This document shows, piece by piece, positions 17,527 to 19,433 of a stretch of 64,000 nt of DNA (positions are counted from its first letter, which is position 1; the number at the start of each line of letters is the position of its first letter). A program made the position numbers and the translations under genes. The stretch lies in NCBI RefSeq assembly GCF_013122565.1, contig NZ_CP053258.1; one strand, 5' to 3'. The notes under the pieces are model-generated. The model saw only the letters and a program-made list of their open reading frames with translations. It was not told the origin of the DNA and did no database searches. Source of the stretch: Escherichia coli. GTDB lineage: Bacteria; Pseudomonadota; Gammaproteobacteria; Enterobacterales; Enterobacteriaceae.

Positions 17527-17790
17527 TCAGGCGCGGATTTGTTGTGATGTGGTTGTGCTCTGGCAGATGGCAACGTGTGCGACGTCCACCAGTTTATTTA
17601 ACTGACTAAACAGTAAGTCGACCGACCGTGGGCTGGCAACGGTCAATTCGATATTTATATTTTGTGCATCGCTGGCGGCGGCCATATTCATTGAGCAGAC
17701 GTGGAAACCACGATGACGCACCACGCGTAAAACACGTTCTAAGGTTTCTGGATTGAAGCGAGCCGATACATTGACCTGATGTTGCATCAT
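17527..17790 (-). CDS. ilvM: Acetolactate synthase II small subunit
   Basis: 87-aa [90 protein letters not shown]; its start overlaps the ilvG stop by 4 nt. Confidence 0.9.
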
Positions 17791-19433
17791 GATAATTTCT
17801 CCAACATTTCTGAATTACTGGCACCAGGCGGCACCAGCGGCCAGACGTTCTCAAGTTCGTCGATTGAGACATGAAGCAGGTATGGCCCATCACTGTTCAG
17901 CATGGTGTCGAGTGCCGCTTCAACCTGGTCTTTACGGGTGATGTGTTGGCCAGGGATGCCGAAGGCGCTGGCTAACTTGAGGAAATCGGGGTTATCGGTA
18001 AGGGTGGTTTCGCTGTATCGCTCCTGGAAAAACAGTTGCTGCCATTGTCGAACCATCCCTAACCGTTGGTTATCGAGTAAGACGATTTTCAACGGTAACT
18101 GCTTGCGTTTTACGGTGCCCAGCTCTTGCACATTCATCATGAAAGAGCCGTCACCGGAGATACAGACGACGGTATCGTTCGGTCGCGCGACTTGTGCGCC
18201 AACCGCCGCTGGTAAACCAAAACCCATGGTGCCTAAGCCGCTGGAGGTGATGAAATTTTCCGGGCGAGTGTGGGCGATGTGCTGCGCAGCCCACATCTGG
18301 TGCTGCCCCACATCTGTGGTCACAACGCAATCCGCAGGTTTACGATCCGACAGTTGTTTTAACAACAACGGCGCGTAGATAGCGTCACCGGGATGGTCGT
18401 AACGCCAGGAATGTTCATCACGCAGCTGCGCGCAGTGTTGCTGCCAGTCATTGATATTTAACGGCTGCTGTAATGCTGGTAACAGAGCATTTAAATCACC
18501 TTGTAATGCCACATGTGCCTGACGCAGCTTGTTCATTTCTGCCGGGTCGATATCCATATGGATAACACTGGCGTGTGGTGCGAAGGTGTTCAATTTGCCG
18601 GTCACCCGGTCATCAAAACGTGCACCCACGGCGATCAGCAAGTCGCACTCCTGCACCGCGAAGTTCGCCGCTTTGGTGCCATGCATTCCCAGCATTCCCA
18701 GATAGTACGAATAATCTGCTTCAACTGCGCCCAGCCCTTTCAGCGTGCAGGTGGCAGGCATTTTTGTGGTAGCGAGAAATTCTCGTAAAGCAGGAACTGC
18801 CTGCGCCATACCCACGCCACCGCCAACGTACAGCATCGGTTTTTGCGCTTTTGCCAGCATCTGGCGCGCTTGCTCAACTTCGGCATGTGGAAAAGTCACT
18901 ACGTTTTCAACGGTGGTGAACCACGGTTCCAGGTCACCGCTGGCTAGCTGGATATCTTTTGGGATATCGACCAGAACCGGACCAGGACGACCTGAGCTGG
19001 CAACGTCGAATGCTTCAGCCATAATGCGCGGCAACTCTTCCAGCGACTGCACCAGAAAGCTGTGCTTGGTACAGGCTAACGACAATCCCAGGACATCCAC
19101 TTCCTGAAATGCGTCAGTGCCGATAAACGGTGCGGACACTTGACCGGTGATGGCAACAACAGGGATAGAATCTAACAGTGCGTCCGCAAGCCCGGTTATC
19201 AGGTTGGTTGCGCCCGGACCAGACGTGGCGATACATACGCCAGTTTTGCCGGTAGCACGGGCATAACCGATAGCCGCCATTGCCGCACCCTGCTCATGTC
19301 GGCACAGCAAGTGCTCCACGCCGCCGTCATACAATGCATCGTAAACCGGCATAATTGCGCCGCCCGGATAACCGAAAACGGTGTTCACACCCTGTGCCCG
19401 CAACGCATGTACCACCCACTGTGCGCCATTCAT
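17787..19433 (-). CDS. ilvG: Acetolactate synthase II large subunit, intact reading frame
   Basis: Uninterrupted 548-aa [81 protein letters not shown]... (ThDP enzyme). In K-12 this gene carries a frameshift; here it does not. Confidence 0.95.

Follow-up and report, generated by a model that had tools for sequence, protein, structure and literature searches.

Acetohydroxyacid synthase II (AHAS II), which consists of IlvG and IlvM, is the isozyme without valine inhibition, and AHAS I, in which the partner subunit is IlvN, is valine-sensitive. The frameshift in ilvG of Escherichia coli K-12 has been textbook knowledge since 1981; the primary paper on K-12 ilvG is reportedly that of Lawther et al. 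from the same year, and Parekh and Hatfield are said to have found in 1997 that the frameshift is polar on ilvEDA. That it abolishes AHAS II activity and renders K-12 sensitive to valine, as an earlier reading made from the letters of the present DNA alone (the sequence-only reading) had held, agrees with the published account (PMC7066862). Restoration of the frame in K-12 ilvG restores function (PMC8605374; bioRxiv 10.1101/2025.10.31.685768). Strains W, B and Crooks carry an unbroken ilvG (PMC3032704), which in B strains has been credited with valine resistance and with growth on valine dipeptides (PMC3446290). In CFT073 growing in human urine, AHAS II is the sole active acetolactate synthase isozyme for growth, according to a 2025 preprint (bioRxiv 10.1101/2025.10.31.685768).

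Here we describe the ilvG locus in a stretch of 64,000 nucleotides of E. coli DNA (contig NZ_CP053258.1 of assembly GCF_013122565.1), which is called the window throughout and to which all coordinates refer unless stated otherwise. With a probability of about 0.92, its ilvG is the ordinary wild-type gene of a natural non-K-12 strain and encodes the catalytic subunit of AHAS II.

The ilvG frame and the K-12 lesion

The features of the operon around ilvG are the following.

16578..17507, minus strand: ilvE, the next gene of the operon (open reading frame list; synteny with annotated loci)
17527..17790, minus strand: ilvM, AHAS II small (ACT-domain) subunit, 87 amino acids (NF008362; Pfam ACT_5)
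17787..19433, minus strand: ilvG, AHAS II (acetolactate/acetohydroxyacid synthase II) catalytic subunit (open reading frame list; NF006524; Pfam)
18456..18457, minus strand: AT dinucleotide, ilvG nucleotides 977-978, present here and deleted in K-12 (MAFFT alignment)
19436..19486, minus strand: ilvX, open reading frame of 16 codons immediately 5' of ilvG (DNA and peptide identical to K-12 b4669)
19517..19552, minus strand: attenuator terminator, a G+C-rich hairpin followed by U8 (RNA folding; 100% identity to K-12)
19573..19671, minus strand: ilvL leader peptide, 32 codons (open reading frame list; NF007744, 82 bits)

In the list of open reading frames a single ATG-initiated frame of 548 codons with zero internal stops occupies 17787..19433. 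The sequence-only reading had described one uninterrupted ilvG of 548 amino acids, and its coordinates proved exact; the strand, which it had left out, is minus. Its further observation that the ilvG stop and the ilvM start overlap as ATGA is borne out by the letters tcat at 17787-17790 of the plus strand, which read ATGA on the coding strand and place the TGA of ilvG over the ATG of ilvM.

MG1655 ilvG (b4488) is annotated as a pseudogene of 1645 bp, and the gene in the window measures 1647 bp. Alignment of the two, which had been proposed as a check together with the claim itself, reveals one 2-bp gap and 37 substitutions and locates the frameshift site as a 2-bp deletion at nucleotides 977-978, the placement of the gap inside AAATATC being ambiguous by one base. 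At this site the window has AAATATCAATGAC and K-12 has AAATCAATGAC. After the deletion the K-12 product ends in ...PLNQ at a TGA in codon 328; the AT is present in the window and the frame therefore stays open, through residue 548. The diagnostic deletion being absent, the window gene is not the K-12 frameshift allele, as the sequence-only reading had maintained. The five other natural alleles that were compared (PapM-32-1, Sakai, PapRG-06-5, 8479 and TB06051) are each 1647 bp long with an open frame, and measured against all seven intact alleles in the comparison, K-12 has lost 2 bp in a single deletion. A published description of the lesion speaks instead of "two separate base pair insertions" (PMC3032704).

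The distribution of the lesion was followed by matching a probe of 80 nt across the K-12 junction against 5,426 complete genomes of E. coli. The exact K-12 junction was found in 340 of them, and all 60 of the matches listed are laboratory K-12 derivatives (e.g. MG1655, C600, DH5alpha, J53 and HMS174). The intact junction was matched exactly in 1,404 of the 5,426 genomes, and the rows sampled from the remaining genomes include intact alleles with one to three substitutions and K-12 derivatives with the 2-bp gap. Because the K-12 junction occurs in just 340 genomes, intact ilvG is the norm of the species and the window allele is its ordinary wild-type form.

The IlvG protein

IlvG of the window matches the NCBIfam equivalog NF006524 (acetolactate synthase 2 catalytic subunit) with 1072.1 bits against a cutoff of 738, and the match is full length, spanning residues 1-547 of the protein and 1-547 of the 548 profile positions. 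Three Pfam domains of thiamine diphosphate (ThDP) enzymes, each covering its whole profile, are located at residues 1-115 (PF02776, TPP_enzyme_N), 186-321 (PF00205, TPP_enzyme_M) and 374-522 (PF02775, TPP_enzyme_C). The Mg/ThDP motif GDG(x)25N begins at residue 427, and the residues E47, F109, Q110, M250, R276, V375, M460 and W464 are all found. Among these we take E47 to be catalytic, and F109, Q110, M250, R276, V375 and W464 to determine substrate specificity, on the strength of mutagenesis work on AHAS II.

Compared with K-12 ilvG in which the frame has been restored, the gene carries 31 synonymous and 6 nonsynonymous codon changes (dN/dS 0.057). The dN/dS values lie between 0.057 and 0.15 with no signal of decay, and by this measure ilvG is under purifying selection. 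An independent assembly, GCA_052983875.1, encodes an IlvG protein identical to that of the window, with one synonymous difference between the genes; the exact protein is found on only three public contigs. A search of the PDB returned no entry that could be recognised as the IlvG-IlvM enzyme of enterobacteria, and the best match and closest solved structure is the large subunit IlvB of E. coli AHAS I (PDB 6LPI; E = 2e-161, residues 2-544 aligned).

The operon around ilvG

The order ilvL, attenuator, ilvX, ilvG, ilvM, ilvE, ilvD, ilvA matches that of the ilvLXGMEDA operon. The small subunit scores 134 bits against NF008362 (cutoff 68). In the leader, which is identical in sequence to that of K-12, 15 of the 32 codons specify Ile, Leu or Val, and the Rfam family RF02744, a cis-regulatory 5'-UTR family, is detected at 19453-19742, a stretch that contains ilvL. 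The attenuator RNA folds with -23.3 kcal/mol (z = -3.66); a simple terminator scan missed it on the minus strand because its stem is bulged. In the 159 bp proximal to the promoter there are 8 differences from K-12.

A side observation concerns ilvM, which is a cold spot of nucleotide diversity in E. coli. None of its 264 nucleotides differs from K-12, as against 37 of 1647 in ilvG, and in a panel of eight the segregating sites number 2 in ilvM, 75 in ilvG and 39 in ilvE. At an identity of at least 99%, ilvM is present in 87% of 5,424 genomes and the 3' end of ilvG, taken at equal length, in 9.6%. Between genera ilvM is not frozen (dS 0.47-0.75, compared with 0.92-1.11 for ilvG). An embedded signal, such as an internal promoter for ilvE, or a species-wide sweep could possibly account for the cold spot.

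Substitutions at positions 178, 242 and 486

Three residues, V178, S242 and K486, distinguish IlvG of the window both from K-12 and from the nearest complete genome.

17976..17978, minus strand: codon 486, AAG (Lys), ATG (Met) in K-12 (orthologue alignment; genome probes)
18708..18710, minus strand: codon 242, TCG (Ser), CCG (Pro) in K-12 (orthologue alignment)
18900..18902, minus strand: codon 178, GTA (Val), where the other E. coli alleles in the comparison have GAA (Glu) (alignment)

Position 242, which lies 8 residues ahead of the active-site residue M250, is occupied by Pro in all 117 orthologues retrieved from Escherichia, Citrobacter, Salmonella, Enterobacter and Klebsiella, and AHAS I likewise has Pro there in the alignment. 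Position 486 is Met in 107 of these orthologues, Thr in 10 and Lys in none, and the aligned residue of AHAS I is Gln. Val178 is shared by 32 of the 117.

The occurrence of S242 and K486 in complete genomes was examined with 41-mers centred on the SNP, in which every 28-nt seed covers the diagnostic base. The combined probes matched 342 of the 5,426 genomes, 5 of them through S242. The five carriers of the S242 codon come from a baboon, intestine, fresh water, a waste bin and a human; the three that were fetched have intact open reading frames, on haplotypes that are 22-39 nt from the window. S242 is thus a rare, recurrent natural variant. The 60 matches listed are all O157:H7, O55:H7 and O145:H28 genomes with K486, and K486 is the allele of that lineage. 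The suspicion that K486 and S242 are private and possibly damaging changes was dropped in view of these two distributions. Judged by their occurrence, each of the three substitutions is tolerated somewhere in nature, and only their combination is rare.

Origin of the source strain

Over the 6 kb of the ilv region, identity to MG1655 is 97.98%. When positions 1-22500 of the window were compared with the 5,426 complete RefSeq genomes of E. coli, the best identity was 98.3%, with strains of the O145:H28 type on top; for short segments it rose to 99.3%, in strains that differed from segment to segment, a pattern that suggests a mosaic. Of the public data, GCA_052983875.1 (99.2-99.4%) and the assembly of sequencing run SRR11451224 (100% over 10.6 kb) come nearest. 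By these matches the source is best placed in a sparsely sampled E. coli lineage of the Z-locus type. An origin in Shigella or in a cryptic clade was also considered; no IS-type frames were seen in the list of open reading frames, and the gene order agrees with that of the E. coli loci used for comparison. The non-K-12 lineage that the sequence-only reading had proposed is confirmed by the 37 further differences in ilvG, by the identity of the 6-kb region and by a different gene after phoU.

The locus downstream of phoU

The same reading had noted a gene other than bglG after phoU. This proved correct: the position is taken by a DUF1120 gene.

63382 to the end of the window: DUF1120 gene, N-terminal 206 of 245 amino acids, separated from phoU by an AT-rich spacer and running off the window

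The last 955 bp of the window (63046-64000) gave no megablast or blastn match in the 5,426 complete E. coli genomes, and a peptide-pattern scan of the GTDB species representatives returned no confirmed relative of the DUF1120 protein. An exact-protein look-up placed it on only five contigs. On related contigs the gene heads an operon of about 6 kb, which consists of three DUF1120 genes, a PapD-like chaperone and a PapC usher (contig L009, 9665-16000), and 3' of this fimbrial operon lies an AT-rich segment with 28-34% GC (L009 16000-20738, outside the window). Elsewhere this segment is annotated as "type III effector / pentapeptide repeat protein / EspY4", and it matches a locus in 1,108 of the 5,426 genomes, mostly at 80-95% identity.

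An alternative to bgl, Z5211-5214, has been described, with a frequency of 19% in a PCR survey (Sankar et al. 2009, PMC2646131). The AT-rich locus probably corresponds to Z5211-5214, because its GC content is about 30%, it is positioned beside phoU and its frequency is 20% here and 19% in the survey. In strain GF3-3 the AT-rich locus directly adjoins phoU, and therefore the rare fimbrial operon of about 6 kb appears to have been inserted between phoU and the Z-type locus.

Other features of the window

A complete rRNA operon is located at 22960-28184 on the minus strand, between hdfR and an open reading frame of 230 amino acids at 28665, and comprises 16S, tRNA-Glu, 23S, 5S, tRNA-Asp and tRNA-Trp; from its gene composition we take it to be rrnC. 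Rfam families were detected at 26296-26404 (StyR-44), 54549-54706 (STnc410) and 4300-4399 (the TrxA 5'-UTR thermometer). From the lengths of the open reading frames and the K-12 map, asnC is presumably located at 42989-43447 and the frame of 629 amino acids at 44359 is presumably mnmG; on the basis of gene order and the same map, oriC and mioC should then fall at about 43450-44360.

Discussion

The question that an open ilvG frame raises is whether the enzyme works as well. AHAS II of the source strain is predicted, with high confidence and in line with the sequence-only reading, to be functional, because the family match is full length, the domains are complete, the catalytic residues checked are present, dN/dS is low and ilvM and the leader and attenuator are intact; P242S is the one caveat. 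The IlvG subunit of 548 amino acids, dependent on ThDP, Mg2+ and FAD, would form AHAS II together with co-translated IlvM, and the enzyme would condense pyruvate with pyruvate or with 2-ketobutyrate in the first common step of Val, Leu and Ile synthesis. The ATGA overlap is the kind of arrangement with which translational coupling, here of ilvM to ilvG, is associated. In the absence of a frameshift ilvG translation should not terminate prematurely, and ilvEDA should be expressed free of polarity of the K-12 type, under the control that the unchanged ilvL leader and attenuator would exert on the operon. As AHAS II is insensitive to valine, the strain should be able to grow on minimal medium in the presence of valine. 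Both the valine-insensitive activity and the valine-resistant growth are expected here by likeness to strains B, W and CFT073.

Three other explanations of the open frame need to be weighed against an ordinary wild-type gene. The most serious of them, which we nevertheless consider improbable, is that the frame is open and the enzyme impaired or altered, with P242S, together with V178 and K486, affecting folding or the active-site loop before M250; the strain would then not be fully valine-resistant despite its open ilvG. The invariance of Pro242 and the lack of Lys486 among the 117 orthologues speak for such an effect, as do the Pro that AHAS I has at the aligned position and the rarity of the full haplotype. 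Set against this, S242 recurs in five other complete genomes from unrelated sources and all three of the fetched frames are intact, which speaks for tolerance of the change; O157:H7, O55:H7 and O145:H28 genomes have K486 as their allele; AHAS I has Gln at position 486; and dN/dS between 0.057 and 0.15 gives no indication of decay. That the V178, S242 and K486 haplotype might alter the kinetics, the regulation or the inhibitor binding of AHAS II has, in our estimate, a slighter chance still.

The two explanations that concern the origin of the sequence itself deserve hardly any weight. A sequencing or assembly artefact that hides an indel in the true sequence has nothing in its favor beyond the general possibility raised by the sequence-only reading, and would have to be reconciled with a difference from K-12 that consists of a 2-bp AT in a non-homopolymeric context, with the identical IlvG protein of the independent assembly GCA_052983875.1 (L003), with the 100% identity of assembly L009 over 10.6 kb elsewhere in the window, and with a length of 1647 bp in all natural alleles examined. 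A K-12 derivative with a repaired ilvG, either a valine-resistant revertant or an engineered strain, is conceivable in that such strains exist (PMC8605374; bioRxiv 10.1101/2025.10.31.685768) and that ilvM and the leader do not differ from those of K-12. This identity reflects species-wide conservation, since ilvM is at least 99% identical in 87% of genomes, and a repaired K-12 gene is refuted by the divergence of about 2%, with 37 SNPs in ilvG alone and 97.98% identity to MG1655 over 6 kb, as well as by a different islet 3' of phoU and by a best match of just 98.3% to any complete E. coli genome.

Intact ilvG in natural E. coli was already known, and the window adds nothing on the physiology of AHAS II. 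Its practical use is that of a strain marker: it identifies the source as a strain not derived from K-12, for which valine resistance and unpolarised expression of ilvEDA are predicted.

Among the known systems, IlvB of AHAS I (6LPI) and the plant and yeast enzymes (1YBH, 1N0H) have the fold family and the cofactor motifs in common with IlvG of the window, but they are other isozymes. The IlvG protein of O157:H7 Sakai (NP_312729.1) is closer: it has the same length of 548 amino acids, the same position in the operon and the same overlap with ilvM, differs by 4 amino acids and shares K486, whereas the rare S242 and V178 set the window protein apart from it. K-12 b4488 is the orthologous locus, flanked by ilvX, ilvL, attenuator and ilvM sequences that are identical to those of the window; it differs in lacking the AT at nucleotides 977-978, and in 37 further nucleotides and 6 amino acids.
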